Below the pieces are notes generated by a model. The model worked only from the letters and a program-made list of their open reading frames with translations. It was not told the DNA's origin and searched no databases. This document shows positions 6,961 through 27,028 of a stretch of DNA of 28,102 nucleotides, piece by piece. The stretch is from Candidatus Altarchaeum sp. (lineage in GTDB: Archaea > Altiarchaeota > Altiarchaeia > Altiarchaeales > Altiarchaeaceae), in NCBI GenBank assembly GCA_018260615.1, contig JAGWDQ010000113.1, positions 1-28,102 on the forward strand. Direction: 5' to 3'. Both the position numbers and the translations under genes were made by a program. Each line of letters starts with the position of its first letter. The first letter of the stretch is position 1.

Positions 6961-7263
6961 TTAAAAAATTTCAAAGAATTTTTAAAGATTGAAAATTTTA
7001 TAAATTTTCAGTATTTTAAAAACGAAGTTTTTAAAATCTCCGAGCACAAGCGAGGTGATTTAAAAATGCTTCAGGCATTTTAAATACGAAGTATTTAAAA
7101 TCTCCGAGCAAGAGCGAGGTGATTTTTAAAGATTGAAACCGAAGGTTTCAGTATTTTAAAATCAAGAGATTTTAAAAGATTGAAAATCTCACAGATTTTC
7201 AGTATTTAAAAACCTCGCAGGTTTTTAAAGATTGAAAACTTGTATTTTTCAGTATTTTAAAAA
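6961..7263. repeat. Mosaic array of palindromic modules (4x module A, 2x module B, 5 short linker hairpins)
   Basis: Module A (TTTTTAAAGATTGAAAA-loop-TTTTCAGTATTT(T)AAAA) at 6979-7022, 7123-7161, 7170-7212 and 7222-7263. Module B (AAAATCTCCGAGCA.AAGCGAGGTGATTT) at 7033-7061 and 7097-7125. Confidence 0.92.
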
Positions 7264-7290
7264 TCAAAAAATTTAAATTTAAATATTAAT

Positions 7291-8058
7291 ATGCATCACT
7301 ATTTTTTAGATAAATATGCCAATGTCAATAGCATAATTCATCATTTAGACCCGCGGCTGAAAATAATCGCCTTTATTTCTTATGTTTTATTTGTTATCCT
7401 CACTCCTCCGACCGAATTTATAAAATTTTTCCTTTACTTTTCCCTTATCTTTTCAGTTATTTTGCTTTCAAAGTTGCCTTTAAAATTTATCTTTAAGAAA
7501 TCATTGGTTATTGTTCCCTTTGTTCTGGCAGTTGCGCTCTTTATTCCGTTTTTAAATGAAGGAGAAATTGCCGGCTCATATTCTTACGGAAATTTAAATT
7601 TTGCAGTAACTTATTCGGGCTTACTGATTTTATTTAATGTTCTGGTTAAGTCATGGCTTTCTGTTATTTCAATGCTTACACTGACATCAACAACAAAATT
7701 TTCCGATTTGCTTAAGGGCTTTGAATATCTGAAATTTCCAAAGGTAATGCTGCTCGTGATTTCATTTATGTACAGATATATTTTTGTAATTGCCGATGAA
7801 GCGATGCGGCTTAAGACGGCAGGCGATGCGAGAAATTTTGGAAATTTAAAGTTGAAGCAGCGGATTGAAATTTTCGGAAACATTATTGCGGTGCTTTTTA
7901 TAAGGTCTTACGAAAGAGCGGAAAGGGTTTATGCGGCGATGCTTTCACGGGGATTTGACGGAAATTTTAAAACAATAAAAGAATTTAAATTTTGCAGTAG
8001 GGATTTCGGGTTTGGTGTAATTATGGGGTTAATTCTGATAATTACATTTGTGATTTAA
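7291..8058 (+). CDS. cbiQ: ECF Ni/Co transporter T component CbiQ/NikQ
   Basis: IHHLDPRLKII, SFMYRYIFVIADEAMRL..A..AR and LFIRSYERAERVYAAMLSRGF motifs. Confidence 0.92.
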   Translation: MHHYFLDKYANVNSIIHHLDPRLKIIAFISYVLFVILTPPTEFIKFFLYFSLIFSVILLSKLPLKFIFKKSLVIVPFVLAVALFIPFLNEGEIAGSYSYGNLNFAVTYSGLLILFNVLVKSWLSVISMLTLTSTTKFSDLLKGFEYLKFPKVMLLVISFMYRYIFVIADEAMRLKTAGDARNFGNLKLKQRIEIFGNIIAVLFIRSYERAERVYAAMLSRGFDGNFKTIKEFKFCSRDFGFGVIMGLILIITFVI

Positions 8059-8082
8059 ACCCGGGTAAAAATATGTTAATAT

Positions 8083-9465
8083 TTAAACTAATTTATTCAG
8101 TTCTTCATTTGCAATCTTTCTCCCGAATTCAATTAATTCCTTCGCCCTGCTCTCTGTTTTTCCTTCTGCAAATATTCTGTAAATCGGCTCTGTCCATGAA
8201 GGTCTGAATAAAACCCATCCGTCACTGAAATAAATTTTAACCCCGTCGGTTTCATCAATTTTAGTGTTGTTCATTTCTATCTTTATTCTATCTTTTATTG
8301 CAGCGGTCAATTTATTCTTTAATTCATCCCTACACTGAATTTTTTCCTTAATCTGGTAAAATTTCGGATATTCGGCAATTATTTCCGAAAGGTCTTTCTT
8401 TTTTTCATGCAAAATTTTTAAAATTTGGACAGCAGTTAATCCTCCTTCTCTTCCTAAATTCAGAGTTGGAAATATACTTCCCCCGTTTTCTTCAAATCCG
8501 AAAACCGCGTTATTTTTCATTATCGCCCCGACAACATCAGCAGCACCGACTTTTGTTCTTATAACTCGTCCTCCATTCTTTTCAGCAACATACTCAATTA
8601 TTGCAGAAGTAGTTATTCCAGTAACAACAATATCACCTTTTCTCATCAAATAATCTGCAATTATTGCCCCTACCATGTCCCCCATAACATACTCTCCTTT
8701 ATCATCAATAAATATACTTCTGTCTCCGTCTCCGTCAAATGCCATTCCGATATCTGCATTTAATGCCCTGACTACTTTCATTAAATTTTCCAGATTTTTT
8801 TTGTCCGGCTCGGAAGGTCTGCCCGGAAAGAATCCATCCATCTGGGCATTGAGCGTTATAACTTTATGTCCTAGTTCTCTTAAAATCTGAGGCATAACAT
8901 TTGACTGCGCTCCGTGTCCGGTATCAACAATTATGGTCAATGCATCTTCTTTGCTTACTTTTACTCCTTCTTTTAAAAGCATTTCTTTATAAATTTTTCC
9001 CGCATCGGCAGTATAAATTTTTCCGATTTCATTCCACGAAGCCCTTTTAAATTTATTGCCAAAATAGATATTTTCAATCTCTTCTTCAGTTTTCCCATAA
9101 ACCTCATTTCCATCGGGCATAAAAAATTTTAGTCCGTTTCTGTCTATCGGAATATGCGAGCCGGTAATCATAATACCCGCATCAAATTTATAAATTTTTT
9201 CCTTAACAGCGTATTGTATTGACGGAACAGGAGTAATTCCCGAATCATAAACATCACATCCCGCAGAAAGTAATCCGCTTATTACAGCAGTCCTTATCAT
9301 ATCCGATGAAGTTCTCGGATCCATCCCAACCAGAACATTTTTTGCATTAAATTTTTCATTCAGATAGTTTCCAAATACGCAGGCAATCTTTGAGCAAAAT
9401 TCAGGCGTTAAAAAGTCATTTGCAGTTCCTCTTATTCCCGTTGTTCCGAATAGTTTTCCGACCAT
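8083..9465 (-). CDS. alpha-D-phosphohexomutase (PMM/PGM or GlmM family)
   Basis: KLFGTTGIRG, active-site ITGSHIP, metal loop FDGDGDR, GFEENGG and VLFRPSWTEPIYRIFAE. Substrate specificity cannot be assigned. Confidence 0.92.
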   Translation of the reverse strand: MVGKLFGTTGIRGTANDFLTPEFCSKIACVFGNYLNEKFNAKNVLVGMDPRTSSDMIRTAVISGLLSAGCDVYDSGITPVPSIQYAVKEKIYKFDAGIMITGSHIPIDRNGLKFFMPDGNEVYGKTEEEIENIYFGNKFKRASWNEIGKIYTADAGKIYKEMLLKEGVKVSKEDALTIIVDTGHGAQSNVMPQILRELGHKVITLNAQMDGFFPGRPSEPDKKNLENLMKVVRALNADIGMAFDGDGDRSIFIDDKGEYVMGDMVGAIIADYLMRKGDIVVTGITTSAIIEYVAEKNGGRVIRTKVGAADVVGAIMKNNAVFGFEENGGSIFPTLNLGREGGLTAVQILKILHEKKKDLSEIIAEYPKFYQIKEKIQCRDELKNKLTAAIKDRIKIEMNNTKIDETDGVKIYFSDGWVLFRPSWTEPIYRIFAEGKTESRAKELIEFGRKIANEELNKLV

Positions 9466-9532
9466 TTTAAGTTAAATTTCTACTTTAAAAATTATTTAAA
9501 AATTAATTTTAGAAATAAAACAATTATAAAAT

Positions 9533-10543
9533 TTATTCGCATTCAACAACCCCATCCCTTTCCTTCACATTAAAACCAAATAAATTTACCGTATAAATGT
9601 TTGTCATTGCGTGCATCGTTGTGCTTATTTTTGCCTTTCCTTTTGCTAATGCAATGTATGGAATAATCTGGTCGCTCGTATGGGAATCAACTCCTGCATC
9701 ATTCCTGATTTCATTTATTAAATTTTTTGCACATTCAATCCCGACATCTTCCGCCTTCTTATTTACCTCTCCGAGCGAGCATGCCCCGATAACTGACTTT
9801 TCTGTTCTCGCAACTAATGTTATTCCACTGCCTGTTGAAAAGGTATTTGCATATTCCTCTTCTATATTAATCGTATCTGTCTTATCGCATAAATTTTCAC
9901 CCCTTAAAATTTTTTCCGCTGCATTTTTCTGCCTTCCAGCAACATTTCGGCTTTTTAAATCGGCACTTGCATGAGAAATCCCGTAAATTTCGGAAATTTT
10001 GCATTTTTCTGTAAAGTCAACAGGACTAAATTTATTAACCTTTTTAATCATAAGACGTACTTTCCCACATCCCTTAGGATAATATCCCCTTTTTAAAATT
10101 TCAATTTCTGCATTTAATCCGATTGTTTTTAAAATCTGAAGCGTTACAAATTTAACATAGTCAATAGACGGTGCAAACCGGACATCTGTTCCTCCGGTAA
10201 TTTCCAGTTCAACATTGTTGTTTATTGCAGCGAGCATCAATGCCTGTAAAACCAGAGGAATTGAGCCGGCAGTTCCTATATCGAGCGTAAATTTTTTGTC
10301 TGAAATTTCTTTCGGCTCAAATTCAATTTCGCATGAACCAATATTTAAGCCCCTAATATCTGCCTCGCATAATTTTCCGACTGCGTTTATTGCACTTATG
10401 TGCTGTGCTCTCAATCCGGGATTTTGTCTTTTTTTTCTTATATTTATAATTCTTATCGGTGTTTTTGTTAATGCACTCAGGGCAACACCTGTTCTTAAAA
10501 TCTGTCCGCCGCCTTCACCATACAGTCCGTTTATTATAAGCAT
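9533..10543 (-). CDS. rtcA: RNA 3'-terminal phosphate cyclase
   Basis: GEGGGQILRT, NPGLRAQH, GTAGSIPLVLQ, GGTDV..AP, RGYYPKG.G and catalytic His in DSHTSDQII. Confidence 0.93.
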   Translation of the reverse strand: MLIINGLYGEGGGQILRTGVALSALTKTPIRIINIRKKRQNPGLRAQHISAINAVGKLCEADIRGLNIGSCEIEFEPKEISDKKFTLDIGTAGSIPLVLQALMLAAINNNVELEITGGTDVRFAPSIDYVKFVTLQILKTIGLNAEIEILKRGYYPKGCGKVRLMIKKVNKFSPVDFTEKCKISEIYGISHASADLKSRNVAGRQKNAAEKILRGENLCDKTDTINIEEEYANTFSTGSGITLVARTEKSVIGACSLGEVNKKAEDVGIECAKNLINEIRNDAGVDSHTSDQIIPYIALAKGKAKISTTMHAMTNIYTVNLFGFNVKERDGVVECE

Positions 10544-10665
10544 ATTTTAATTAATTTAAAAATTTTTATTTGATTAAAAATTTAATTTGTAATTCTAATT
10601 TATAAATTTAAAACATATAAATTTAAATCATTCGGATATTAAATATTTATTAAAAATTTTAAAAG

Positions 10666-10869
10666 ATGAGTATAAAAGAGAAGATAGCCAAATTTCGGGA
10701 AACAATAAAATTTTGGCTCAAGGAAACAGGCCGGATTTTACGACTGACAAGAAAACCAAAACGCTCGGAATTTGACGAAGTTGCAAGAATTACCGGATTA
10801 GGAACAGTTTTATTAGGACTTGTTGGCTTTATCATATTTTTCATAAGCCAGCTCATAAGAATGTCATAA
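10666..10869 (+). CDS. secE: Preprotein translocase SecE/Sec61-gamma
   Basis: RILRLTRKPKRSEF motif followed by one TM helix; immediately upstream of spt5 as in conserved archaeal synteny. Confidence 0.9.
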   Translation: MSIKEKIAKFRETIKFWLKETGRILRLTRKPKRSEFDEVARITGLGTVLLGLVGFIIFFISQLIRMS

Positions 10870-10889
10870 AATTTATTTATAATTATAAA

Positions 10890-11411
10890 ATGATATTTGC
10901 GTTGAAAGTTACACAGGGACAGGAAAGAATAGTTGCAGAAATGTTTTACAATGAAGCGAAAAAACCATCTGCAAGCGGAACTACAAAAGGAATTCACAGT
11001 GTTGTTTATGTTACTACCCAAAGAGGATATATTTTTATTGAGGCGGAAAAAGATAATTACAGGGCAATAGAAGAAATGGCAAAGACAATTCCGAAAACAG
11101 GGCAATTAGTCGGAAGAAAAAATACAACCCTAAAAGTAGTAAAAACAAAAAAAGCAGACAAAACACCACCCAGGCCGGTGCTAATTGAGGAATTAGAAAA
11201 CATTATGTTCCCGAAGAAGATAGTTGCATTTTTAAATGCAGGTGATTTCGTTGAAGTTGTCAATGGACCTTTCAAAGGTGAGAAGGCAAGAGTTATAAAA
11301 GTAAACAAAGAGAAAAACGATGTAACAATTGAATTGACAGAATCAGCAGTTCCGATTCCGATAACATTAAAGGGCTCCGACTTAAGGGCTTTAAGTAAAG
11401 ACAGCAGATAA
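10890..11411 (+). CDS. spt5: Transcription elongation factor Spt5/NusG (NGN + KOW)
   Basis: IFALKVTQGQE and GYIFIEA in the NGN domain; KOW domain GDFVEVVNGPFKGEKARV..VPIPITL. Confidence 0.92.
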   Translation: MIFALKVTQGQERIVAEMFYNEAKKPSASGTTKGIHSVVYVTTQRGYIFIEAEKDNYRAIEEMAKTIPKTGQLVGRKNTTLKVVKTKKADKTPPRPVLIEELENIMFPKKIVAFLNAGDFVEVVNGPFKGEKARVIKVNKEKNDVTIELTESAVPIPITLKGSDLRALSKDSR

Positions 11412-11452
11412 ACGGATATATAAATATAATAAAAATTTATAAAATTTAAAAA

Positions 11453-12007
11453 ATGGAAAGGAAAAATACAGGTAAAGAAAATTTAGAGGACAGTATAGAA
11501 GAAGCGGAGGAAAATATGTCAGAATACTCAAAAGAAGAAGCGGAAGCAGACAGAAAAGCAGTAGAAGAAATAGCAAAAAATTACAGAAAAACAATTGAAG
11601 CAAATCCGGATGATATAGATGCACATTATATGCTGGGAATTACCTTACATGTATTGGAAAGATATGAAGAAGCGGAAAATGCCTACAAAAAAGTCATAGA
11701 AATGAATCCGGGTTATAAAGGCGTATATCACAATTTTGGAGCATTATTATCCGAATTGGAACGTTACGATGAAGCTGAGAAAGCATACCGAAAGGCAATA
11801 GAAATAAATCCTGATGATGTTTATTCATATAGTAATCTGGGATTTTTGTTTTATGATTTAAAACGATTTGATGAAGCAAAACAGGAAATTTTAAAGGCAA
11901 GAGAATTATTTAAAAAAGGAGGTGAATTTCTCGCAGAAGAAGAAATTGTTGAGATGGTTAAAGATTGCGATGAAATTTTGGATGAAATTTCAAAGACAAA
12001 AAATTAA
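11453..12007 (+). CDS. Tetratricopeptide repeat protein with acidic N-terminal extension
   Basis: About three 34-aa TPRs (AHYMLG..ERYEEAENAYKKVIEMNP; VYHNFG..ERYDEAEKAYRKAIEINP; SYSNLG..RFDEA). Confidence 0.87.
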   Translation: MERKNTGKENLEDSIEEAEENMSEYSKEEAEADRKAVEEIAKNYRKTIEANPDDIDAHYMLGITLHVLERYEEAENAYKKVIEMNPGYKGVYHNFGALLSELERYDEAEKAYRKAIEINPDDVYSYSNLGFLFYDLKRFDEAKQEILKARELFKKGGEFLAEEEIVEMVKDCDEILDEISKTKN

Positions 12008-12065
12008 AAAATTTAAATTACAAAAAAATACCCAAATAAAAATTTAAACTTAAAATTTAAAAATT

Positions 12066-12300
12066 ATTTAAACAAAAATTTAAAATAAGTTCGCTTCGCT
12101 CTCATTTAAAAATCTTGTAGATTTTTAAAGATTGAAAACTTGTAGTTTTCAGTAAAAATTTATAATTTTTAGTATATTTAAAATTTAAACAAAAATTTAA
12201 AATAAGTTCGCTTCGCTCTCATTTAAAAATCTTATAGATTTTTAAAGATTAAAAATTTATAATTTTTAGTATATTTAAAATTTAAACAAAAATTTAAAAT
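12066..12300 (+). repeat. Tandem duplication of the rpl11 upstream region with embedded repeat modules C and A
   Basis: Units 12066-12182 (117 bp) and 12183-12279 (97 bp), and a partial unit 12280-12300 ending at the rpl11 ATG. Unit 2 lacks the 20-bp GAAAACTTGTAGTTTTCAGT hairpin. Confidence 0.92.
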
Positions 12301-12769
12301 GCCGGAAATAATTGAATCGCTTGTTGACGGGGGAAACGCAAAACCAGGACCTCCGTTAGGTCCAATGCTCGGACCAACGGGAGTAAATATAAAGCAGGTT
12401 ATAGACGAGGTAAATAAAAAGACAAAGGATTTTGAAGGAATGAAAGTTCCGGTAAAAATCACAATTGACACAGGTACAAAAAAATTTGAAATTGAAGTCG
12501 GAACGCCGCCAACATCTGCATTATTAAAGAAAGAAATCGGTTTGGCAAAAGGAGGAAAAGATAAAAATTTTGTCGGGAACATCAGCATGGAGCAAATTTT
12601 GAAGGTTGTAAAGATGAAAAAAGATATAATGCTTGCGTCAAATTTAAAAGCAGCACTCAAAGAGGCGGCAGGAACATGTGTTTCTATGGGACTAACTATT
12701 GAGAATATGCCTCCGAAGGACTTCATAAAAGCAGTCAGTGATGGAAAATTTGATAAAAACATAAATTAG
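12299..12769 (+). CDS. rpl11: 50S ribosomal protein L11 (uL11)
   Basis: GGNAKPGPPLGPMLGPTGVN, KGMKVPV-like FEGMKVPVKI, GTPPTSALLKKE and GTCVSMG. Confidence 0.97.
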   Translation: MPEIIESLVDGGNAKPGPPLGPMLGPTGVNIKQVIDEVNKKTKDFEGMKVPVKITIDTGTKKFEIEVGTPPTSALLKKEIGLAKGGKDKNFVGNISMEQILKVVKMKKDIMLASNLKAALKEAAGTCVSMGLTIENMPPKDFIKAVSDGKFDKNIN

Positions 12770-12830
12770 ATTTTCTTATTTTTCTTCTTTATTTTTCATC
12801 GCACTTTTTTCTTTTTATTTTTTTAGTTTT
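12770..12830 (+). terminator. T-rich tract, probable archaeal intrinsic terminator for rpl11
   Basis: About 60 nt of oligo-T runs directly after the rpl11 stop, between convergent genes. Confidence 0.4.
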
Positions 12831-12831
12831 T

Positions 12832-13398
12832 TCATTTTTCCTTATTCTTTTTCATTTTTCCTTCCACAACAAAAATTTCCTCAAAAAACAATTTCTTTGA
12901 AGCGACCTTTTCCATCACAAATTTTTCGGTATATCTTTCCGGTGAAATTTTCGTCAGGGATGAAAGCAGGATGAGAAATTTTCCATCGTCTTTCAGGTGT
13001 GCATCAACTTCTTCAAAAAATTTTTCTATCGTTCCGTCATCATTCCATGCCCTTTCAATTAAGAAATTTATTTTATCATTTACGGGAAGGTAAGGAGAAT
13101 TAAAGACAATTAAATCAAATTTTTCTTTAATGTTTTCAAATAAATCACCCTTTCTAAATTCAATTTCGGTATTATTTAAATTTGCATTCTTTTTTGCAAT
13201 TTCAATTGCTTTGTCATTAATATCCGATGCAATAACAGATGCACCTTTCTGTGCGGCAACGAGCGCCAAAATTCCGGTTCCCGTTCCAATGTCAAGCACA
13301 TCTTTGCCTTCTAAATTTTCATAATTTTTCAAAACATCTGCAAGCAGGTATGAATCATCGCTTGGTTCATAAACATCCGGGTGGGTAAGCAATTTCAT
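12832..13398 (-). CDS. HemK2/PrmC-like (Mtq2/N6AMT1-type) SAM-dependent methyltransferase
   Basis: VYEPSDDSYLL, VLDIGTGTG and FNSPYLP (NPPY variant). Confidence 0.87.
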   Translation of the reverse strand: MKLLTHPDVYEPSDDSYLLADVLKNYENLEGKDVLDIGTGTGILALVAAQKGASVIASDINDKAIEIAKKNANLNNTEIEFRKGDLFENIKEKFDLIVFNSPYLPVNDKINFLIERAWNDDGTIEKFFEEVDAHLKDDGKFLILLSSLTKISPERYTEKFVMEKVASKKLFFEEIFVVEGKMKKNKEK

Positions 13399-13425
13399 AT
13401 TTAAATTTTTAAAATTTTACTTTAT

Positions 13426-13640
13426 TTAAAAATCCTTTGGATTTTTAAAGATTGAAAACTTGTAGTTTTCAGTATTTAAAAAATCTCACAGATTTTTTAT
13501 CGTACGGGAAAGTTCGTTTTATGATCCTCACACGGAGACACAAAGGAGTTATATTCTGTAACCTGGTGACTTTGTGGCTTTGTGTGAGTATTCTTCTGAT
13601 TTTTTTAAAGATTGAAAATTCTCAAAGAATTTTCAGTAAA
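13426..13640. repeat. Repeat mosaic: hairpin + module A + hairpin + module D (minus orientation) + module A
   Basis: Module A at 13442-13482 and 13602-13638. Module D at 13492-13608, of which 13566-13608 is the exact reverse complement of 26908-26950. Confidence 0.9.
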
Positions 13641-14751
13641 TTTCTTTAGGTAGGAAATCCTTTAATCGTCTCAATGCATTAATTTTTTCATGAGCACCTA
13701 TTTTTGCATTTTCAAGCCCCGTCTTTAAGGTTTCTATTGACTTGTCCAATAATTTTCTGCTTACTTTATAAGGATAACCGTCCTTCCCGCCGTGAGCAAA
13801 AGAATACTTTACTGGGTCTTTCCAGGATGGCTTTTCACCATAAACCAAATCGCTCAGCAACGCCAATGCCCTTATCGTTCCCGCCCCGACACCTTTAATT
13901 GCAATTAAGTCCTCATAATTTTTTGGCTGGGATTCATAAGCAAAATTTAATGCCTTTGCAATCCTCTCCGACTTCATCAGATTTTCATAGCCATTCAGAT
14001 AAATTTCGTGGTGCCTTGGCAGTTTAAAATTTTCCACCTCAAACAATGTTGTTTGTTTGCTGAAATAAAATTTTGTGCTTTTTTCTTTTGCCAGATCAAC
14101 ACTGCATTTTCTCGCATTCCTGCTTTCTCCGGCAACCATGTTCAACGGTTCAACCTTAACATCACAGCTTATGCCCGTATGCGGCTCATTAACAAAACCT
14201 TCGTCTTTCCTTAAATTTTCAGAAAGCCAGTGATACCTTCTCGCATACAGTGTTTCTGCATTCATCCCCTGCTGAATAACCGCCCATTTCCCGCCCTCGC
14301 TCAAAACAAACGAATGGTGATAAATTTCAAAACTATCCTGTAAGCAATCGTTATCAACCTTCGCAGAAAGACGGCTCGCTTTGATGAGTTCATCTGTTTT
14401 TTGCTGCGACAGGTTAAATTTCTCGGAAAAATTTTGTATTTCGGAGGGAGTATTTCTTGATGCCTTTCCCTTGCCGCCCAAAAAAGCAATTCCTATATCT
14501 TCATTATTTAACGCCTGTTTCAGTGCCCCGCAGGAAACTGTTGTCGTTCCGGATGAATGCCAGTCAAACCCAATAGCGCATGCAAATCCCTGAAACCAGA
14601 ATGGCTCGCTCAATCTTCTCAAAAATTCGTCCCTTCCAAACTCGTATATTATAACCTTTGAAATTTCCCTGCTCAAATTTGTCATTCGTTCAAAAAGCCA
14701 TCTCGGAGTTGTTCCGGGATGTAACGGTAAATCAACAAAGCCGGTTTTCAT
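13633..14751 (-). CDS. DUF763-family protein
   Basis: DLPLHPG.TPRWLF, RLSEPFWFQGFAC.IGFDWHSSGTTT, AKVDNDCLQD, W.VIQQGMN..YARRYHW, GVGAGTIRALAL and DPVKYSFAHGGKDGYPY. Confidence 0.88.
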   Translation of the reverse strand: MKTGFVDLPLHPGTTPRWLFERMTNLSREISKVIIYEFGRDEFLRRLSEPFWFQGFACAIGFDWHSSGTTTVSCGALKQALNNEDIGIAFLGGKGKASRNTPSEIQNFSEKFNLSQQKTDELIKASRLSAKVDNDCLQDSFEIYHHSFVLSEGGKWAVIQQGMNAETLYARRYHWLSENLRKDEGFVNEPHTGISCDVKVEPLNMVAGESRNARKCSVDLAKEKSTKFYFSKQTTLFEVENFKLPRHHEIYLNGYENLMKSERIAKALNFAYESQPKNYEDLIAIKGVGAGTIRALALLSDLVYGEKPSWKDPVKYSFAHGGKDGYPYKVSRKLLDKSIETLKTGLENAKIGAHEKINALRRLKDFLPKEIY

Positions 14752-18188: not shown

Positions 18189-18215
18189 GGTAAAAGAAAG
18201 ATAAGAAAACAAAAA

Positions 18216-18360
18216 AATACTCACACAAAGCCATTTTCAAAACGAAGAGTTTTGAAAATATGAGAGCGAAGCGAACTTATTTTCAAATCGCAGAGATTTG
18301 AAAATCTCCGAACGAAGTGAGGTGACAGAGTATAATTGCCCCTTTGCGTCTCCGTGTGAG
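18216..18360 (+). repeat. Module D interrupted by nested hairpin-C-hairpin-B modules
   Basis: D left part 18216-18233, hairpin 18234-18258, module C 18260-18283 (exact reverse complement of 12082-12105), hairpin 18280-18304, module B 18305-18325, D right part 18326-18360. Confidence 0.9.
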
Positions 18361-18436
18361 AATAATGAAAATCATATACTTTATAAAAATGTAAAAAATA
18401 ATAACAAAAAAATTTAAAAAACAAATTTCGGATAAA

Positions 18437-18997
18437 ATGATTTTGGGCTTTTACGGAAATTCAAATTCGGGAAAAACGACACTGATAGAGAAGATATGCA
18501 AAAATTTAAAAAAGGAAAATTTAAATGTTGCAGTTGTTAAACATATTCCGCACAAAAATTTTTCCATAGATAATAAGGCGAAGGATACGGGAAAATTTAA
18601 AAATTCAGGAGTTGATGTTGTTGCATTTTCTCCCGGTGAGACGGCTTTTATACTTGGCGGGATGAAATTTAGCGATATGATTTCTAAATTAGAATATATC
18701 GGCAGTTATGATGTAATTTTGGTTGAAGGACTAAAAAAACAGAATATTCCAAAGGTCAGGGTCGGAGAATGCAAAATAGAAAACAATACGATAATGGACT
18801 ATAAAATTGCAGGCGATTTAAAAATAATTTTAAAATGGATAAAAAACGAGGTTCAAAAGGAAAAAACAGAATGGGAGAAAAAGAAGAAGCTTTTGCTACG
18901 GGTGATAAAAGTGACGAAGGTAAGAAAGACGAAGTTAAATATGGCGAAGTTAAAAGGGACGAAGGTAAGAACGACAAAGGCAAGAAAGACGAAGTAA
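18437..18997 (+). CDS. mobB: Molybdopterin-guanine dinucleotide biosynthesis protein MobB (N-terminal GTPase domain; tail after about 18870 probably off-frame)
   Basis: ILGFYGNSNSGKTTLIEK, VAVVKH, KDT.KF..SG and YDVILVEGLK. Confidence 0.87.
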   Translation: MILGFYGNSNSGKTTLIEKICKNLKKENLNVAVVKHIPHKNFSIDNKAKDTGKFKNSGVDVVAFSPGETAFILGGMKFSDMISKLEYIGSYDVILVEGLKKQNIPKVRVGECKIENNTIMDYKIAGDLKIILKWIKNEVQKEKTEWEKKKKLLLRVIKVTKVRKTKLNMAKLKGTKVRTTKARKTK

Positions 18998-19134: not shown

Positions 19135-19158
19135 GAAAATCAGGAATTCATAAGAAAA

Positions 19159-19731: not shown

Positions 19732-21327
19732 TCACATTCCCATACCTCCTCCTCTTTTCGTTGATGCGATTACATCATCAATTCTTAAAATCATATCAAC
19801 TGCTTCCGTTGCCGATTTCAGCGCCTGAATTTTTACCTTTAACGGCTCTACGACATTCTTTTCATACATATTACCTGTTTTTCCTCCTACAACATCCACT
19901 CCGTAATCCTTTTTTCCTTCACTGTAATGCTTCCTTAAATTTACCAGAGTATCAATCACATCCATTCCCGCACTCTCCGCAAGTGTTTTTGGAATATCCT
20001 CTAATGCATCGGCAAATTTTTTTACTGCTAATTGCTCTTTTCCGCTTTGTGTTACTGCAAATTTTCTTAATTCTTCTGCCGCATCAACCTCAACGGCACC
20101 GCCTCCGGTTACTATCTTTTTCATCTCTAATGCACTTGAAAGAGAACCCAAACCGTCCTTTATTGCTCTTTCTAATTCATCAACAACATGTTCGGTTCCG
20201 CCTCTTAATATAATTGTCGCTACCGTCGGATTTACGCAGTCCTTTACAAATATAAAATCATCTCCTGCCATTTTTGTCTGCTCAACAACACCTGCATTTC
20301 CGAGTGAGTCGGAACTTAAATTTCTCATAGAATTTACAATTTTTGCATTTGTTGCCTTTGAAAGTTTTTTCATATCACTTTCTTTTACTCTTCTTGCAGC
20401 CATAATTCCGCTCTTTGCCAGATAATACTGTGCCATATCATCAATTCCTTTCTGACAAAACACAGCATTTGCACCTGTTTTCTTTACTGACTCAACCATA
20501 TCTTTTAGCATTCTTTCTTCTTCATCTAAAAATGCCTGCATTTGTGCCGGTGTGTCAATTTCTATCTCGCCCTTTGTTTCTGTTTTCTTTACTTCAATGG
20601 CAGCATTAAGAAGCAGTATTTTTGCATTTGTTACCTTTTTTGGCATTTGAGCATGCACGACTTCCTTCTCAATGACCATACCTTTAACAATCTCCGAATC
20701 GCTTACCGACCCGCCTTTTTTCTTTATTATTTGCACATTGTCCTGATCAATCTTTAATTCTCCATCCGCGGTTTCTGCTATTGTTTTAATTGCTTCCACA
20801 CACAGTTTTCCTATATGTGACGGATCTACATCAAGTGTTTTTCCTGCTACGGAAACGGATGCAATTTTAATCAGTGCATCATTATCATTTAAGTCAATAT
20901 CCCGTGCATTATCTTCCAGATACTTTTGTATATGTCCCTGTGCTGCCTTATATCCGGATATTACAACTGACGGATGTATGTTTTTTTCAAATAAGTCCAT
21001 TGCCCCTTCCAGTAACCTGCCTGCATATATCAAAGCGGTAGTCGTTCCGTCCCCGACTTCTTTATCCTGTGTTTTTGCTATTTCAACCATTAGTTTTGCA
21101 GCCGGATGTTCAACCTTTAACTTATCTACAATTGTCGCACCGTCATTTGTTATGGTTATATCTCCCATATCATCCACGAGCATTTTATCCATTCCTTTAG
21201 GTCCTAATGTCGTCTTAACTGCGTCACTTACGGCCTTTGCCGCAGATATATTTGCCCTCATTGCATTACCGCCCAAAAGTCGTTCATAGCCCTCAGGTAA
21301 TACCAAAACCTGCATTTGTTGTGCCAT
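19732..21327 (-). CDS. ths: Thermosome (group II chaperonin) subunit
   Basis: TTLGPKGMDKML, ITNDGATI, EVGDGTTT, ILRGGTEHVVDELER, TGGGAVE, ILRIDDVI and a GGGMGM tail. Confidence 0.97.
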   Translation of the reverse strand: MAQQMQVLVLPEGYERLLGGNAMRANISAAKAVSDAVKTTLGPKGMDKMLVDDMGDITITNDGATIVDKLKVEHPAAKLMVEIAKTQDKEVGDGTTTALIYAGRLLEGAMDLFEKNIHPSVVISGYKAAQGHIQKYLEDNARDIDLNDNDALIKIASVSVAGKTLDVDPSHIGKLCVEAIKTIAETADGELKIDQDNVQIIKKKGGSVSDSEIVKGMVIEKEVVHAQMPKKVTNAKILLLNAAIEVKKTETKGEIEIDTPAQMQAFLDEEERMLKDMVESVKKTGANAVFCQKGIDDMAQYYLAKSGIMAARRVKESDMKKLSKATNAKIVNSMRNLSSDSLGNAGVVEQTKMAGDDFIFVKDCVNPTVATIILRGGTEHVVDELERAIKDGLGSLSSALEMKKIVTGGGAVEVDAAEELRKFAVTQSGKEQLAVKKFADALEDIPKTLAESAGMDVIDTLVNLRKHYSEGKKDYGVDVVGGKTGNMYEKNVVEPLKVKIQALKSATEAVDMILRIDDVIASTKRGGGMGM

Positions 21328-21465
21328 TTTTACTTTTACTTTTTAATTAATTATTCTTTTTATTAATTACACTTATTTTATTAAATATTCTTGTTTTATT
21401 AATTAGTTTGAGTGTATATAAATTAAATTTTAAAAAACTAAAATAGAAATAAATTGGAAATTTCA

Positions 21466-22743
21466 ATGGAAACAACAATAAAAGAAACAATAGTTGAGCA
21501 GTGCAAAGCAGGAAAAATTCCCGAAGAAGCAAAATTTATTGCACGGACCGAAAACAAAGATGTCCATTTTGTAGTAAAAGAGATAGCGAGCGGAGGGCTT
21601 GCTGTATTAAGAAGAAAAACCAAATTTGTCGGAATTGGAAATGGACTAAGAACAAAATTAAATGTAAATTTAGGAACATCTTCTGTCGGAGAAATTTCAG
21701 AAGAGGTTGAAAAAGCAAAAATTGCAGAGAAATTTAAAATAGATGCAATCACTGAAATGTCTATGTGCGGAGATATTGATAAAATAAGAGAAAGCATTTT
21801 TCAATCCGTAACAATGCCTGTAATCACCTGTCCGATATATCAGGTTGCAGCGGAAAATTTTGATAAGGGGAACGGCTTTAAATTTAATGGCGGAGAAATT
21901 TTACATAATATTGAAAAACACTTAAAAGAAGGTGTCAGTGCTGTTGTCCTGCATTTATCAATGACAAAAGATGCGATAAAAAAATTAAAAAATACGAAAC
22001 GAATAGACAGTATTGTTTCAAAAGGAGGTGCATTAACTGCCGCTTATATGATTGAGAATAACTGCGAAAATCCGTTTATTGAAAATTTTGCCCGGATTAT
22101 TGAAATTTTGCACGCTCACGATGCAACATTAATTCTCGGAAATGTTATGCGTTCCGGTGGTGTTTGCGATGAAATGGACGAACTGCATATAAACGAAATG
22201 AAAATGAACAGAAATTTCGCAAATAAGGCACACAGGCATGGAGTTCAGGTTATAGTTGAAGCGTTGGGAGGGCATATTGCGGCGAAAAATTTAATAAGTT
22301 ATACAAAATTTTACAGAAAGAACATAAAATTTCCCTTGTTTGCTTCGGGACCTGTGCCGATTGACTGTGCCCTCGGATATGACCATATTGCGGCATGTCT
22401 CGGGGCGGGGATTGTTGCAGGACACGGAGCGGACTTTTTATGCTGTATAACTCCTGCCGAACATTTGGCTTTGCCGACTGTTGAAGATGTTAAAGAAGGG
22501 ATAATCACATTTAAAATTGCCGCTGAATTTGCCGATGCAATGAAATACGGAATAAGCGAGAGAGACAGAGCGATGGATGAGGCGAGGGACGGACACGATT
22601 GGGAAAAGCAGTTTGGTCTGGCAATAGACGGAGGCGAAAGAGCGAGACAAAAAGGTAAAAATTTAATCAAAGGAACAGGTTGTACAATGTGCGGAAAATA
22701 CTGTGCTGTTGATGTTATGAAAAAATATCTGAATAAAATGTAA
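21466..22743 (+). CDS. thiC: ThiC-family radical SAM enzyme (divergent; HMP-P synthase or Bza-type paralogue)
   Basis: GLRTKLNVNLGTS, PIYQV, GYDHI, DFLCCITPAEHL.LP..EDV.EG.I..KIAA and C-terminal CTMCGKYC. ATG at 21466 is preferred over the TTG at 21454. Confidence 0.82.
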   Translation: METTIKETIVEQCKAGKIPEEAKFIARTENKDVHFVVKEIASGGLAVLRRKTKFVGIGNGLRTKLNVNLGTSSVGEISEEVEKAKIAEKFKIDAITEMSMCGDIDKIRESIFQSVTMPVITCPIYQVAAENFDKGNGFKFNGGEILHNIEKHLKEGVSAVVLHLSMTKDAIKKLKNTKRIDSIVSKGGALTAAYMIENNCENPFIENFARIIEILHAHDATLILGNVMRSGGVCDEMDELHINEMKMNRNFANKAHRHGVQVIVEALGGHIAAKNLISYTKFYRKNIKFPLFASGPVPIDCALGYDHIAACLGAGIVAGHGADFLCCITPAEHLALPTVEDVKEGIITFKIAAEFADAMKYGISERDRAMDEARDGHDWEKQFGLAIDGGERARQKGKNLIKGTGCTMCGKYCAVDVMKKYLNKM

Positions 22744-22840
22744 CTACTCACCCGCTCAAAAAATTACTGGTAAATTTTTTGATTTTTTGTATTTTTTTGA
22801 AATTTTCACAGGTAAATTTTGTTAACCCGTGAGTAGTTAC
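22740..22840. mobile_element. 101-bp MITE-like element with terminal inverted repeats and 8-bp target-site duplication
   Basis: Perfect 12-bp TIR GTAACTACTCAC (22740-22751) / GTGAGTAGTTAC (22829-22840), with imperfect pairing extending further inward. Flanked by AATAAAAT at 22732-22739 and 22841-22848. No ORF. Confidence 0.75.
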
Positions 22841-22848
22841 AATAAAAT

Positions 22849-24003
22849 TTAATATTGTAATAATTTAAATAATTCTTTCCATTTCTTTATGTGTTCTTTC
22901 TTAATCTCCGTCGTTTTTGAGAACTCAATTTCTAAGTTTTTCGTATAATTATCAATAAACTTACCTGGGTCATCCAATAATCTTAAGTAATACTTTAACG
23001 AAGGTATTAACCCATTCACTATAACTTCGCAACCATGCTTATTTCTTATATCCTCAATTACTTCTAAAATCTTATCTTCTTCACCTCGCTTAATATTTGG
23101 TTCTGCTGTGGTTAGTAAATAATATCTCTTTATTGGTGTAACTTTGAATTTATCATAAGCGTCTTGTATCATCACGCTGTCTATCGGAATTCCATGCTTG
23201 ATTTCAACCGCTTCAAAATATGTTCCCCTTTTATCTGTTACTTCAAGGTCGCCTACTCCTCTCGCTCTCGCATCCGGAGAAATATGGCTTCTTAAGGGAA
23301 GTAGTTTTTTATTTTCAAATCTTGAAATGTCTTTAATCAATATCTGGTAAATTGAATAAAGAGATACAACGGGCAACCTTGACGCTCCGGAAACAGAATA
23401 TTTGTTAAAAAAATGTATTTTTAACACATCTACAATAGAACTTATTGTAATTCCTTTTTCAATTTTTATTATATTTGCTTTTTTCTGTTTTACTGATGTG
23501 GATTTAATAAGCAGAATGAACAAAGAAATCAAATAAGTTTGAGGGTCTGCCTTTTTGATTTCAATATCATCAATAATATTCAGGAACGTTGTTTTTACCT
23601 CTTTGTCTCGTATTTTCCCCGGAAAGTCCTTTGTAAATGGGTGTGGTTGTTCAATAGAACGGGTAAGCCAGCCACTTTCTTTCATAGATAATCTTCTGAA
23701 ATGGCTTTTAAAAAATGGAGTTACATAACTTGTATCAAGTGTTCTTCCGGAATATCCGTTTTTTAATTCATGTTTATGATATCTGATGTCTTGTTTTGGG
23801 TCTTCAATCTTTTTAACAAGACAAGTGGTTAAAGCAGTCGTAACAGCTTTTAATGATTCTGATTTATCCGCTACTTTAACGAGCCATTCTTTTTGACTTG
23901 CATTTAGTTTATTAAGATATTTCTTACCTCTGTCTCTTTTCAGTTCTTTTTCTGCTTCTGAAAAAGCATCATTCAAAATCGTATTATAATCGTGATTGTT
24001 CAT
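22849..24003 (-). CDS. Putative type II restriction endonuclease (PD-(D/E)XK)
   Basis: GVGDLEV...FEAVEIKHG catalytic-type motif. ATG at 24003 overlaps the MTase TGA (ATGA coupling). Family and recognition site are not assignable from sequence. Confidence 0.75.
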   Translation of the reverse strand: MNNHDYNTILNDAFSEAEKELKRDRGKKYLNKLNASQKEWLVKVADKSESLKAVTTALTTCLVKKIEDPKQDIRYHKHELKNGYSGRTLDTSYVTPFFKSHFRRLSMKESGWLTRSIEQPHPFTKDFPGKIRDKEVKTTFLNIIDDIEIKKADPQTYLISLFILLIKSTSVKQKKANIIKIEKGITISSIVDVLKIHFFNKYSVSGASRLPVVSLYSIYQILIKDISRFENKKLLPLRSHISPDARARGVGDLEVTDKRGTYFEAVEIKHGIPIDSVMIQDAYDKFKVTPIKRYYLLTTAEPNIKRGEEDKILEVIEDIRNKHGCEVIVNGLIPSLKYYLRLLDDPGKFIDNYTKNLEIEFSKTTEIKKEHIKKWKELFKLLQY

Positions 24004-25180
24004 ATTATCCATTCCATTAGACAATTTTCCTTTTTAATAATTTTCAATCTCTCATTAGCATCATCACAATATTGCCGGTTTATGTCAAAACCAATGTAAT
24101 TTCTTCCTAATTTTTTACAGGCAACAGCAGTTGTCCCGCTTCCGATAAACGGGTCTAATACAATATCATTTTCTTTTGTAAGTAAAATAAGTAATTGCTG
24201 AATAATAAATTCCGGGTAAATCGCAGGATGTCCGGAACCTTTAACCGACTCAACAGGACTTTCTATTATATCTCTTTTAAGAAACTCTCCGTTTATTTTT
24301 ATTATTGTAAATCCTTTTGTAAGCATTTGTGTCTTTCTGCCTCCCTCCTGGCCACCGAATGGTAAAGAATGAATACCGTTAATTTTCATTCTAAAACCGG
24401 AAATTTTTCCGTTTTTGACTTCTACTATAACCTGATTTAGATCTTTTTTTGCCATAAGTTTTTGTGTATCTGTTAAGTTGGACTTCTCAATAAGTTCAAA
24501 ATATTTTTTGCCTATTCCATTACCTCTGATGGTTTTCTTTCTTGTGGTCTTTAAAAATTTCATAAATTCATCTAAATTATAGTAATAGTCATCGGATTTA
24601 ACAAAATGGAAAAATGGTTCGGTACTGCTTACTAATCTGCCTTTAAATTGTCTCGGAGTAGGATTAAGTTTTGCCCAGGTAATATTATTCACTAATTTTA
24701 CAGATTCTTTGTTTAGTATATTCAAAGCGAATCTAAACGGCACCAATAACAAACTACTTTCTAAGTATTTATCGCCTATGTTAAAGACAATGCTTCCGTT
24801 TTTCTTGGTAACTCTTACACATTCATGAAAAAGTTCGGATAATTTGTCTATGTATTCGGAGACCTCTTTTTCGTTGCCTATCTCTTTGTCATCTTTTGTA
24901 TATTCTCTTTGCTGAAAATAAGGGGGCGAAGTAATTATTAAATTTACCGACTCATCCGGTAAAATTTTTATTAATTCCAAACTGTCTCCACATAATATTT
25001 TATTTGTGAAGTTATCTGTAGTTTCCATGATTAACTTCATTTTTATAAATTTTTTAGTCCGTTTAAATATGCTCGCTCATGTTTTGCATTTTGAAAATTT
25101 ACCTAAAATAAATTAAATTTGGATAATTAAATTTAAAGTAAAAAAGCAGAGTTTTTGAAATCTCCGAACAAAGTGAGGTG
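22863..25180. mobile_element. R-M islet lying between intact thiC and a thiC relic
   Basis: Bracketed by direct repeats 22652-22739 / 25216-25303 (83/88 identical) and 22841-22862 / 25305-25326 (21/22). No integrase in the window. Confidence 0.6.
24000..25040 (-). CDS. Beta-class amino-DNA methyltransferase (probably N4-cytosine)
   Basis: Motif IV ITSPPY near the N-terminus, HPAIYP, and motif I VLDPFIGSGTT near the C-terminus (beta order). SPPY favours m4C. Confidence 0.92.
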   Translation of the reverse strand: MKLIMETTDNFTNKILCGDSLELIKILPDESVNLIITSPPYFQQREYTKDDKEIGNEKEVSEYIDKLSELFHECVRVTKKNGSIVFNIGDKYLESSLLLVPFRFALNILNKESVKLVNNITWAKLNPTPRQFKGRLVSSTEPFFHFVKSDDYYYNLDEFMKFLKTTRKKTIRGNGIGKKYFELIEKSNLTDTQKLMAKKDLNQVIVEVKNGKISGFRMKINGIHSLPFGGQEGGRKTQMLTKGFTIIKINGEFLKRDIIESPVESVKGSGHPAIYPEFIIQQLLILLTKENDIVLDPFIGSGTTAVACKKLGRNYIGFDINRQYCDDANERLKIIKKENCLMEWII

Positions 25181-25181
25181 A
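25141..25181 (+). repeat. Hairpin remnant + module B
   Basis: GAAATCTCCGAACAAAGTGAGGTGA at 25157-25181 matches 18300-18325 and the B copies at 7033 and 7097. Confidence 0.85.
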
Positions 25182-25316
25182 TAGTTGAGGCATTGGGCAG
25201 GCATGGCAAAAGAGCAAGGTAAAAATTTAATCAAAGGAACAGGTTGTACGATGTGCGGGAAATACTGTGCTGTTGATGTGATGAAAAAAGAGCTGAATAA
25301 AATTAATAAAATTTAA
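25178..25316 (+). pseudogene. thiC: Internally deleted relic of a second thiC allele
   Basis: 25181-25204 matches thiC 22252-22275 (20/24; IVEALGRH vs IVEALGGH). It is followed by a GGC.AAAGAGC piece like 22633-22643, then KGKNLIKGTGCTMCGKYCAVDVMKKELNKINKI* (25216-25316). Confidence 0.87.
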
Positions 25317-25375
25317 GATTGTAATATAAATTGTAATATAATTTTTAAATTTAAATTTTATACACTTAAATTAAA

Positions 25376-25684
25376 ATGATAGGCAGGATTGTAAATTTTA
25401 GGATGGGAAGGAGAACACAGCATACAAATCAGATGGTATTGGAATTGAACGATGAAATTTCATCAAAGAAGGAAAATTTAGTGAAGTTAATGGGCAAAAA
25501 AGTAACCTACAAAGCAAAGACACATGATATTATCGGAAAAATTACAAGAACGCACGGAAAAAGAGGTGTTGTGGCGAGATTTAACAGAGGTATGCCGGGA
25601 CAGGCAATAGGCGGTGTCGTTGAGATTGCTGCAGATGTATCTCTAAATCCACAGCCGGAACCCCCAAAGGAGGATAAGGAATGA
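25376..25684 (+). CDS. rpl35ae: 50S ribosomal protein L35Ae (eL33) with C-terminal extension
   Basis: G.IVNFRMGRRTQHTNQM, GKITRTHGKRGVVARF.RGMPGQAIG; archaeal/eukaryotic r-protein. Confidence 0.9.
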   Translation: MIGRIVNFRMGRRTQHTNQMVLELNDEISSKKENLVKLMGKKVTYKAKTHDIIGKITRTHGKRGVVARFNRGMPGQAIGGVVEIAADVSLNPQPEPPKEDKE

Positions 25685-25766
25685 AAGGGCTGATGGGTTG
25701 TGAGATTACCAAAAAGGTTTTGTTCGTAAAATTTATGTTATAAAAATTTTTGTTTTCTTATTTTAG

Positions 25767-26897
25767 ATGGCTTTTAAAATTGCCTTAATTCCGGGAGACG
25801 GAATCGGGAAAGAAGTAATGGCAGAAGGAAAGAAGGTTGTTGATGTTGTAAGCGAGAAATTTAATTTTGAAATTTCATGGAATGAGTATGATTTCGGAGC
25901 GGAAAGATATTTAAAAGAAGGGAAAACGCTTACAGAGGACGACTTAAAGGAATTAAGCAAAAACAAATCAATTTATTTTAGTGCCATCGGTGATCCCCGG
26001 GTAAAGCCGGGAATTCTTGAAAAAGGTGTTTTACTCGCAATGAGGTTTTACTTTGACGAATATATAAATTTAAGACCGATAAAATTTTTTGAAGGCGTGC
26101 GGGAAGTTTTAGCGAATAAAACCGCAAAGGATATAAATTTTTATGCAGTCAGGGAAAATACAGAGGATTTTTATGTCGGAATCGGAAGTAATGAGGCAAA
26201 GAAAAGGTCTAAAGATGAATTTGAAATTTTGAGAACACTTTACAGCGTTAAATTTAATCTGGATATTGAAAGCGATAGAGATGAGATTGCTTATCAAATC
26301 GGAATTTTGAGCAAAAAGGGCTGTGAAAGAATTATAAGGTATGCCTTTGAACTCGCAAAGAGAAAAAATTACGACTTGGTAACAAGTGTTGATAAAGCAA
26401 ATGTGCTGAATTTTTATGCCGTCTGGAGAAAGGCGTTTGATGAAATTTCAAAGGAATATATAAAAGATGGAATTAAGAGCGAATATCTTTATGTTGATGC
26501 TGCTGCGATGTTTTTTGTTTTAAAGCCGGAAAGATTTAAAGTTCTTGCCATTCCGAATATGTTCGGGGATATTCTTACTGACCTGGGTGCAGGAATTTGC
26601 GGAGGATTAGGGACTGCTGCAAGCGGAAATATTAATCCGAATGGAATAAGTATGTTTGAACCAATTCACGGAAGTGCTCCGGATATTGCCGGAAAAGGTA
26701 TTGCAAATCCGGTTGGTCAGATTTTGGCAGGTGCAATGATGCTTGACGAATTAAAGAAAAGCGATGCGGCAAATATGATAATAAAAGCGGTTGAGGATGT
26801 CTTAAGGGAAGGTAAAGTTAGAACACCTGATTTGGGAGGAAATGCAAAAACGATGGATGTTGGAAATGAAATTGTGAGAAAGATAAAGGAAATGTGA
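25767..26897 (+). CDS. leuB: 3-isopropylmalate dehydrogenase (isocitrate/isopropylmalate dehydrogenase family)
   Basis: IPGDGIGKEV, AIGDPRVKPG, YINLRP, VRENTED, VDKANV, PNMFGDILTDL, FEPIHGSAPDIAGKGIANP and RTPDLGG. Confidence 0.85.
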   Translation: MAFKIALIPGDGIGKEVMAEGKKVVDVVSEKFNFEISWNEYDFGAERYLKEGKTLTEDDLKELSKNKSIYFSAIGDPRVKPGILEKGVLLAMRFYFDEYINLRPIKFFEGVREVLANKTAKDINFYAVRENTEDFYVGIGSNEAKKRSKDEFEILRTLYSVKFNLDIESDRDEIAYQIGILSKKGCERIIRYAFELAKRKNYDLVTSVDKANVLNFYAVWRKAFDEISKEYIKDGIKSEYLYVDAAAMFFVLKPERFKVLAIPNMFGDILTDLGAGICGGLGTAASGNINPNGISMFEPIHGSAPDIAGKGIANPVGQILAGAMMLDELKKSDAANMIIKAVEDVLREGKVRTPDLGGNAKTMDVGNEIVRKIKEM

Positions 26898-26907
26898 TTA
26901 AAATAAA

Positions 26908-27028
26908 TTAAAAAAATCAGAAGAATACTCACACAAAGCCACAAAGTCACAGAGCAACATTGCCCTTTGTGTCTCCGTGTCTTGGTGTGAGAGAACAATA
27001 AAACGAACTTTCCTGTACGATAAAAAAT
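26908..27028 (+). repeat. Module D dispersed repeat
   Basis: First 43 nt identical to the 13566-13608 copy. Shares CCTTTGTGTCTCCGTGT and ATAAAACGAACTTTCC(C/T)GTACGATAAAAAAT. Confidence 0.92.

Follow-up and report, generated by a model that had tools for sequence, protein, structure and literature searches.

The analysed window of 28,102 nucleotides represents an entire contig (C113) of a draft genome of 2.23 Mb, which consists of 148 contigs with 33% GC and is referred to as G000. The window genes are archaeal housekeeping genes, including those of the thermosome and the ribosomal proteins L11 and L35Ae, and the DUF763 protein showed an identity of 91-93% to those of two metagenome-assembled genomes of Candidatus Altarchaeum. 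The host is an uncultivated groundwater archaeon, Candidatus Altiarchaeum. In the spacers of the window, palindromic sequences are assembled from a few shared modules, termed A, B, C and D. The original prediction had described six such mosaic loci; all six were found to be intergenic and to contain the modules named for them far above chance, with seven matches of the module A pattern compared to 0.01 expected from shuffled sequences and four matches of the module B pattern compared to 0 expected. The long exact matches described there are real as well, since a 43-nt inverted match connects 13566-13608 with 26908-26950 and 27-nt copies of module C lie at 12079-12105 and 12196-12222, with a 96% complementary copy at 18260-18286. 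We consider it likely that the six loci are insertion mosaics made of two tiers of non-autonomous mobile DNA, namely the foldback element D and a set of small double-hairpin units. Three genomes of the same genus (G001-G003) with a gene identity of about 85-90% at the DNA level were used for comparison, and all four Altiarchaeum genomes are 65-87% complete.

The small units h+A, h+B and h+C' are bipartite and about 45-53 nt long: an AT-rich first hairpin, called h, precedes a second one, which was identified as module A, B or C. All repeat features given below lie on the plus strand unless stated otherwise. The first locus starts with an h+A unit at 6960-7013 (AT hairpin 6960-6986, module A 6987-7013), followed by an h+B unit at 7014-7058, in which h has a C-GAA-G loop (7014-7036) and B occupies 7037-7058. 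Next comes a stretch of h, a mini-hairpin (TAC-GAA-GTA) and B (7101-7122) at 7059-7122, and then a module A at 7123-7153 with a CC/GG inner stem and a GAA loop (7131-7153). Two further h+A units complete the locus: the one at 7154-7204 is predicted to fold into two hairpins as single-stranded DNA (-13 kcal/mol, z -6.7), and the one at 7205-7254 has an imperfect A inner stem.

At the second locus, the modules are embedded in the leader of rpl11. A native leader repeat at 12059-12085 opens a series of three direct repeats (20-27 bp) between which the module clusters lie. It is followed by a cluster at 12086-12175 comprising C (12086-12105), h (12106-12129), A (12130-12154) and a degenerate A, where the h is common to a minus-strand h+C' and a plus-strand h+A. 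The second tandem copy at 12176-12299 contains a leader repeat, C (12203-12222), h, a degenerate A (12247-12271) and a last leader repeat, which ends at the rpl11 ATG. The whole cluster upstream of rpl11 (12059-12299) is tandemly duplicated with a period of 117 bp. In G002 and G003, a single leader without modules was found at this position.

The third locus contains an intact h+A unit (13425-13474) and a second h+A unit that is split by D at its T-run. The h half of the split unit covers 13475-13498 and ends in a T-run (13493-13498) representing one copy of the D target duplication. The core of an uninterrupted module D of loop type 2 (TCAGAAGAAT...GTACGAT) follows on the minus strand at 13499-13599, and the segment 13600-13638 comprises the other copy of the T-run (13600-13606) together with the A half belonging to the split unit (13610-13638). 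The DUF763 gene on the minus strand takes its TGA stop codon (13633-13635) from the right arm of this module A. The C-terminus of DUF763 reads ...KEIY* in the window and ...EEI* in G001.

The fourth locus is a D-type element of 186 bp without a left tail (18219-18404), which is enclosed by a left (18210-18218) and a right (18405-18413) copy of its target duplication CAAAAAAAT. Its left arm starts at 18219-18233 and is interrupted by a nested h+C' (18234-18279) and a nested h+B (18280-18325), while 18326-18404 comprise the remaining arm, the loop, the right arm and the tail. A degenerate h with an intact B (25161-25181) forms the fifth locus (25136-25181). The sixth is an uninterrupted module D at 26910-27028, whose core (26917-27021) lies between A-runs at 26910-26916 and 27022-27027. 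Furthermore, we found a seventh locus that was missing from the original prediction, a degenerate h+B upstream of a KilA-N gene (27164-27211).

The boundaries of the small units were fixed by comparing filled with empty copies of module D, which serves as a natural trap. Accordingly, the TTTAAA and TTTSAAA sequences, which had been taken for junctions between modules, are the stems of h. The h is a perfect AT-rich hairpin and occurs in the forms TTTAAAA..TTTTAAA and TTTTCAAA..TTTGAAAA. The h+B unit reads TTTTCAAAAC-loop-GTTTTGAAAA followed by T(C/A)TCCGAGC-loop-GCGAGGT(G/T)A, h+A reads TTTAAAA..-loop-..TTTTAAA followed by GATTGAAA-stem-loop-stem-TTTCAGTA, and h+C' consists of h and ATGAGAGC-GAA-GCGAACTTA. 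A GAGC-loop-GCGA core is common to B and the reverse complement of C. In G000, the intact units number 102 for h+B, with lengths of 44-49 nt and 54 distinct sequences, and 99 for h+A, with lengths of 47-53 nt and 64 distinct sequences. These units start with TTTTCAAA or TTTAAAA and end with GAGGTGA or TTTCAGTA, and the sequence beyond their boundaries is variable.

Module A comprises four main alternative inner stems (ATCT/AGAT, ACT/AGT, ATTCT/AGAAT and CC/GG), and the inner stem is fully complementary in 197 of 223 copies. In module B, one variable pair was determined as A-T in 130, as G-C in 98 and as mismatched in 14 copies; these stem-pair counts of A and B derive from a custom script and not from a formal covariation alignment. 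The variation of the B pair probably reflects two subfamilies rather than many independent events. As single-stranded DNA, h+A is predicted to fold into two hairpins with z values of about -6 to -6.7. Many unit loops are GAA triloops, and module C contains GCGAAGC. Both are known as unusually stable DNA mini-hairpins, which is a hint, though not a proof, that single-stranded DNA is the form being recognized.

Module D is of a different kind. It is a foldback element of about 105 nt with a core of 88-107 nt between its tail markers; its left tail is short, and the right one has about 30 nt. The imperfect arms of about 28 nt consist of runs of 8-nt units (NCACNRAG), and these octamer-type arms are subterminal inverted repeats. 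D inserts into A-runs and duplicates 6-9 bp of its target. Among the 12 copies with an informative left flank, i.e. not pure A, five showed identical 7-mers on both sides (GAAAAAA, AAATAAA, AAAAAAC and twice AAAAAAT).

The modules are distributed over the whole genome. The census of G000 yielded 224 copies of A, 175-270 of B depending on the pattern used, 27-46 of C and about 107 D tails. Copies were found on most contigs, and more than 90% of them lie outside called open reading frames (ORFs), which supports the prediction of a family of modular, palindromic, non-autonomous archaeal repeats; the copies number in the hundreds. Since 25-35% of the module copies are located at contig edges, the repeats break the assembly. 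In the comparison between genomes, for which reversed-pattern controls gave 0 matches, the B pattern was found 262 times in G000, 55 times in G001, 151 times in G002 and 72 times in G003, and the A pattern 215, 94, 36 and 212 times, respectively. A 12-mer of the D arm occurred 35 times in G000, not at all in G001 and G002 and once in G003. None of the three patterns was found in the nearest other genus, and in the 57 other genomes of the class the B pattern gave 0-3 matches per genome, B being regarded as absent from them. Hence A and B are genus-wide, and D is essentially specific to the G000 lineage. The modules are therefore not confined to one region, and their copy number and position differ between congeners.

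The insertion of D can be followed at empty sites. The element of the fourth locus is absent from the spacer between the DUF2070 and MobB genes in G001, in G003 and in a metagenome contig (L172); a metagenome scan matched three contigs with protein identities of 82-89%. While CAAAAAAAT is doubled around the element in G000, the empty sites contain a single copy. In the metagenome contigs CCXY01000111 and CCXY01000255 (L170:3120-3330 and L171:3120-3330), which stem from other Altiarchaeum populations, the same spacer carries two other, unrelated transposable elements of the miniature inverted-repeat type (MITEs), and it is an insertion hot spot. The first of these MITEs has terminal inverted repeats of 16 bp (ACATGACTATCGGCTA); the second shows GTAACTATTCAG ends together with an 8-bp duplication (AAAAATTT) and contains a nested unit similar to h+A. 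For a second D copy (C44:74208), an empty orthologous site with the target GAAAAA(A) was identified in G001. That spacer (G001:C71:42650-43200, L187) also shows a duplication of its own, about 120 bp of the downstream gene start, and is thus a further repeat-prone spacer with a long duplication.

The modules of the first, second, third and fifth loci are likewise missing in at least one congener each. The CbiQ leader in G001 comprises only about 25 bp, and the modules of the second locus are absent upstream of rpl11 in G002 and G003. At the third locus, the 234 bp found in G000 correspond in G002 to a 6-bp junction from the DUF763 stop to the methyltransferase start. The modules of the fifth locus are absent from the orthologous spacers in G003 and G001.

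The small units are recognizable as insertions where they interrupt other repeats. Among 57 candidate D loci with both tails, 17 were uninterrupted and 12 carried exactly one insert of about 48 nt; of the complete D loci, 30 of 47 were interrupted. Since D is confined to the G000 lineage, the small units in these loci must have been inserted after the arrival of D. Units of the h+B type were also found inside the loop of another h, at GCA^GAG. The insert boundaries agree between independent insertions into the arms and loops of D, and in the cases resolved the small-unit inserts showed no duplication of the target. The units insert in either orientation. In the left part of D, nine B copies are opposite to D and one has the same orientation, and in the right part all 18 have the same orientation and none is opposite. 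These nested copies are not independent, because D subfamilies spread after gaining inserts. About six underlying events of insertion into the arms were counted, all of them with the conserved hairpin pointing outward.

Several enzymes had been suggested as candidates for the mobilization of the modules. Of these, GxxExxY alone was found, and it is linked to no module other than D. The Y1 HUH domain (PF01797) gave no match in G000-G003, while the control genomes were matched, and GIY-YIG (PF01541) gave no match in G000. G000 contains up to nine TnpB-type genes, including a seven-member family on elements with their own 15-nt terminal inverted repeats; a TnpA gene was not detected. The TnpB ends (GAGTGATTTCGCTTT) are unrelated to any module, and a module lies within 200 bp of one of the seven family members. 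As a source of the modules, the TnpB elements were rejected because their ends are unlike the modules. TnpB is the sole multi-copy transposase family identified and the sole insertion sequence whose ends were compared, so that the absence of a match between the modules and the ends of a known insertion sequence refers to these elements. No multi-copy protein family flanked by modules was found in G000; among the ten largest families of paralogues, nine showed ordinary Pfam domains unrelated to transposases, and one gave no match.

The two GxxExxY genes of G000 (C53:50015-50401 and C109:150-530; PF13366 with 139-144 bits, TIGR04256 with 138-149 bits) both lie inside octamer-type arms, and each arm variant also occurs in gene-less copies. 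Only these GxxExxY cassettes share the arm type of D, and no transposon sharing the D ends was found in the genome; the gene-less D copies amount to about 100. A GxxExxY homologue was found in one of 61 genomes of the class, namely G000. To our knowledge, no biochemical activity has been assigned to GxxExxY, and it is not known to be a transposase; our literature search found no published link between GxxExxY and repeats. Outside the archaea, octamer-type arms frame three of the four bacterial homologues checked. In Sphingomonas, Bernardetia and Bacteroides finegoldii, the gene is located between housekeeping genes and exactly between inverted arms of 25-30 nt of the same periodic kind. Beside the homologue of Gemmatirosa, a gene-less hairpin with such periodic arms was found.

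A viral origin of the modules was considered and rejected. The exact patterns of A and B gave chance matches only in IMG/VR, since the inner parts of these matches were not self-complementary, the matches were single and their GC content was foreign. The search for the D tail gave no match, and for GxxExxY no close viral relative was found. Hairpins with the D arm sequence (CTCACACAAAGCCACAAAG...) do occur in IMG/VR contigs with 57-62% GC (L174:540-615, L174:3630-3652, L175:11384-11691 and L173:9439-9461), and of two such contigs, one holds four matches. Between one pair of these hairpins lies an ORF of 80 aa, which gave a weak match of zinc-finger type; GxxExxY genes were not found between them.

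Altogether, the mosaics are best described by two tiers instead of the one element family of the original prediction. In the first tier, D would insert into A-runs with a duplication of 6-9 bp and would have expanded to about 100 copies in the G000 lineage only. In the second tier, h+A, h+B and h+C' would land in AT-rich spacers and, with preference, in loops and arms belonging to other hairpin repeats, and insertion into other repeats would build the head-to-tail arrays and nests. Recognition would take place on single-stranded, folded DNA. The two tiers differ in their distribution and in their insertion signature, with no duplication in the resolved cases of the small units compared to 6-9 bp for D, and therefore probably depend on different enzymes. 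The enzyme of the second tier would not be an HUH protein of the RAYT (REP-associated tyrosine transposase) type, where REP stands for repetitive extragenic palindromic sequence, and that of the first tier may be the GxxExxY nuclease, whose genes lie inside D-type arms.

A number of observations weigh against this description. Movement was never directly observed, and since the genes of the congeners have diverged by about 12%, the term recent is relative. Many nested copies were inherited from one event, as for example in the D+48 subfamily, so that the events are far fewer than the copies. The outermost ends of D are not inverted repeats, unlike those of a classical MITE. Overall, the excess of exact 7-mers around D is modest (10 compared to 7.0 expected, p = 0.035), and exact 6-mer matches were no better than in shuffled pairings; the 6-mers are uninformative because nearly all D targets are A-runs, and the A-rich flanks also make the length of the target duplication ambiguous. 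The folding of B is weak under nearest-neighbour parameters, and that of D is modestly better than for shuffles (z -1.5 to -2.6). The distribution of GxxExxY matches that of D, but in a single lineage, and the connection between the two consists of this co-occurrence and the gene position. A single-copy HUH gene could be missed because all four genomes are incomplete. Finally, the clusters of the second and fifth loci are bracketed by duplications of 20-88 bp, and the spread may thus be caused partly by recombination or tandem duplication.

A more specific proposal goes beyond the two tiers. D would be the gene-less, REPIN-like form (REPIN being a REP doublet forming a hairpin) of a foldback family found across domains, its octamer arms would be the cognate DNA of GxxExxY, and the units of about 45-53 nt would constitute a second, HUH-independent family targeting folded single-stranded DNA. 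It agrees with the demonstrated insertion of D, as seen from its target duplications and the empty orthologous sites, and with about 100 D copies in G000 compared to 0-1 in the congeners without a GxxExxY gene, and we put it forward tentatively, as the less probable outcome.

The alternative that the modules are host cis-elements, i.e. terminators, mRNA-stabilizing hairpins or protein-binding sites that are kept by selection and spread by duplication instead of being selfish, appears improbable. Each h provides T-runs on both strands, similar to the oligo-T terminators of archaea; moreover, the modules are almost exclusively intergenic. For D, a host role finds further points in its favour: 24 of 62 copies lie in convergent spacers compared to about 15% expected by length, most copies are co-oriented with the genes (22:10), and in the right D tail of the fourth locus there is a TATA-like TTTATAAAAA, which precedes the MobB start by about 50 nt. 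Contrary to this, the orientation of A (43:66), B (47:35) and C (14:15) relative to the genes shows little or no bias. These three modules spread roughly in proportion to spacer length. A role of B as ribosome-binding site, considered for its Shine-Dalgarno-like GAGGTGA end, was rejected, since among 242 copies only two have a start codon at a distance of 12 nt or less. The orthologous spacers of congeners work without modules, as at the 6-bp junction of G002, the units insert into one another, the copy number varies six-fold between species, and the Rfam scan of the window gave no relevant match.

Even less probable is a true REP system with an HUH gene that is missing from the draft assemblies, be it of the BIME (bacterial interspersed mosaic element) and RAYT type, i.e. 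REPIN, or of the IS200/IS605 type with its PATE derivatives. The REP, BIME and REPIN sequences with their RAYT transposases (PMC3116915, PMC3733652) resemble the Altiarchaeum modules as short, imperfect, extragenic palindromes with hundreds of copies, as mosaics of alternating units, and in being lineage-specific with a copy number that varies between relatives. The incomplete genomes and the presence of TnpB genes, the partners in IS605, would also fit. However, PF01797 was unmatched in four independent genomes while the controls were matched. In addition, REP palindromes have a conserved GTAG or CGTC tetranucleotide at one end (PMC3733652), which is absent from the ends of the Altiarchaeum units; GTAG was found inside some loops only. 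The units are bipartite with about 45-53 nt, mostly arranged head-to-tail instead of as inverted doublets, and occur in an archaeal host. The TnpB elements end in inverted repeats of their own and have a module nearby in one of seven cases, and the modules, unlike PATEs derived from IS200/IS605, share no palindromes with them. The analogy drawn in the original prediction therefore holds for modular mobile palindromes, and does not extend to the HUH enzyme and the tetranucleotide tag.

Just as improbable is an origin of the mosaics that needs no dedicated enzyme and relies mainly on local slippage during replication, on tandem duplication and on gene conversion among palindromes. It could account for the 117-bp duplication between the 20-27 bp leader repeats of the second locus, the head-to-tail arrays and the 88-bp copy of the ThiC 3' end beside the B of the fifth locus, but not for identical 47-nt units at up to nine dispersed loci on different contigs, the clean and reproducible insert boundaries within unrelated sequence such as D arms and loops, or the D target duplications at dispersed sites.

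Among the known systems, REP and BIME are closest in appearance to the small units of the two-tier description, and SMR-A is closest in behaviour. SMR-A of Haloquadratum walsbyi has about 110 bp and terminal inverted repeats, targets IS605/PATE palindromes, and its movement was described as enigmatic (PMC3119063). Like the small units, it is a transposase-free archaeal repeat without target duplication and with a preference for the palindromes of other mobile elements; the Altiarchaeum units differ in their length of about 45-53 nt and in targeting D arms and loops as well as h loops, and there is no sequence homology. The CGTC-type REPs have no dedicated transposase according to PMC3733652. 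D resembles a MITE as a short, non-coding foldback element with target duplication, empty sites in relatives and a lineage-specific burst, but differs from it in its non-inverted extreme ends, its octamer-array arms and its only gene-bearing relative, which encodes the GxxExxY nuclease and not a transposase. Candidatus Altiarchaeum hamiconexum was reported as the archaeal genome densest in MITEs, with 146 per Mb, the elements themselves not being described (PMC11602168). A further parallel is given by the NTS/SRM repeats with the Ssn GIY-YIG nucleases, which act on single-stranded DNA (PMC11893778). As with D and GxxExxY, hairpin repeats flank the gene of a small nuclease with a single domain and exist in many gene-less copies as well; GxxExxY, however, is of the PD-(D/E)xK type (PF13366, TIGR04256) and not GIY-YIG, which was not found in G000.

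Regarding the neighbouring genes, the accessory gene content varies at the very spacers in which the repeats are located. The Fic gene (5786-6907) is absent beside CbiQ in G001, and the TPR gene (11453-12007), whose neighbours are the gene at 10890-11411 and rpl11, is missing in the collinear region of G002:C58. Beside the fifth locus, ThiC (21454-22743) is followed by a 391-aa ORF without family match (22849-24024, minus strand), an N6/N4 DNA methylase (24000-25040, minus strand) and then the B unit. Adjoining this B, 25216-25303 is an 88-bp copy of the ThiC 3' end (22652-22739) with 94% identity, and the segment 22652-25303 looks as if a restriction-modification unit had been inserted and had produced a long target duplication. 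This arrangement is lacking in the orthologous spacers of G001 and G003. An enrichment of the modules beside accessory genes was not found in the genome: of ten scanned genes with modules on both sides, eight carry Pfam domains of a housekeeping type (GDH, ThyX, Usp, a zinc-finger protein, S17e, SpoU, KsgA and ASD), and two have no Pfam match. Besides the modules, the window contains a 120-bp tandem repeat (91% identical) within an ORF at the left end of the contig (1-240) and 15-bp tandem repeats at 18906-18995, which code for the K/D/E-rich tail of a MobB-like protein. No tRNAs were found in the window.

The movement of small transposase-free repeats, such as the CGTC-type REPs and the haloarchaeal SMRs, is an open problem in prokaryotic genome biology. 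Altiarchaeum offers a dense and parsable case with defined boundaries, filled and empty sites and two mutually inserting tiers, in which no HUH gene was detected. For the organism itself, the repeats remodel promoters, operon junctions and even a stop codon, and they disrupt the Altiarchaeum assemblies. The GxxExxY family (TIGR04256) gains a concrete candidate for its DNA partner, with evidence of the insertion of D. If the more specific proposal were true, GxxExxY would be the mobilizing or maintaining enzyme of a system resembling that of RAYT and REPIN, based on an unrelated fold.

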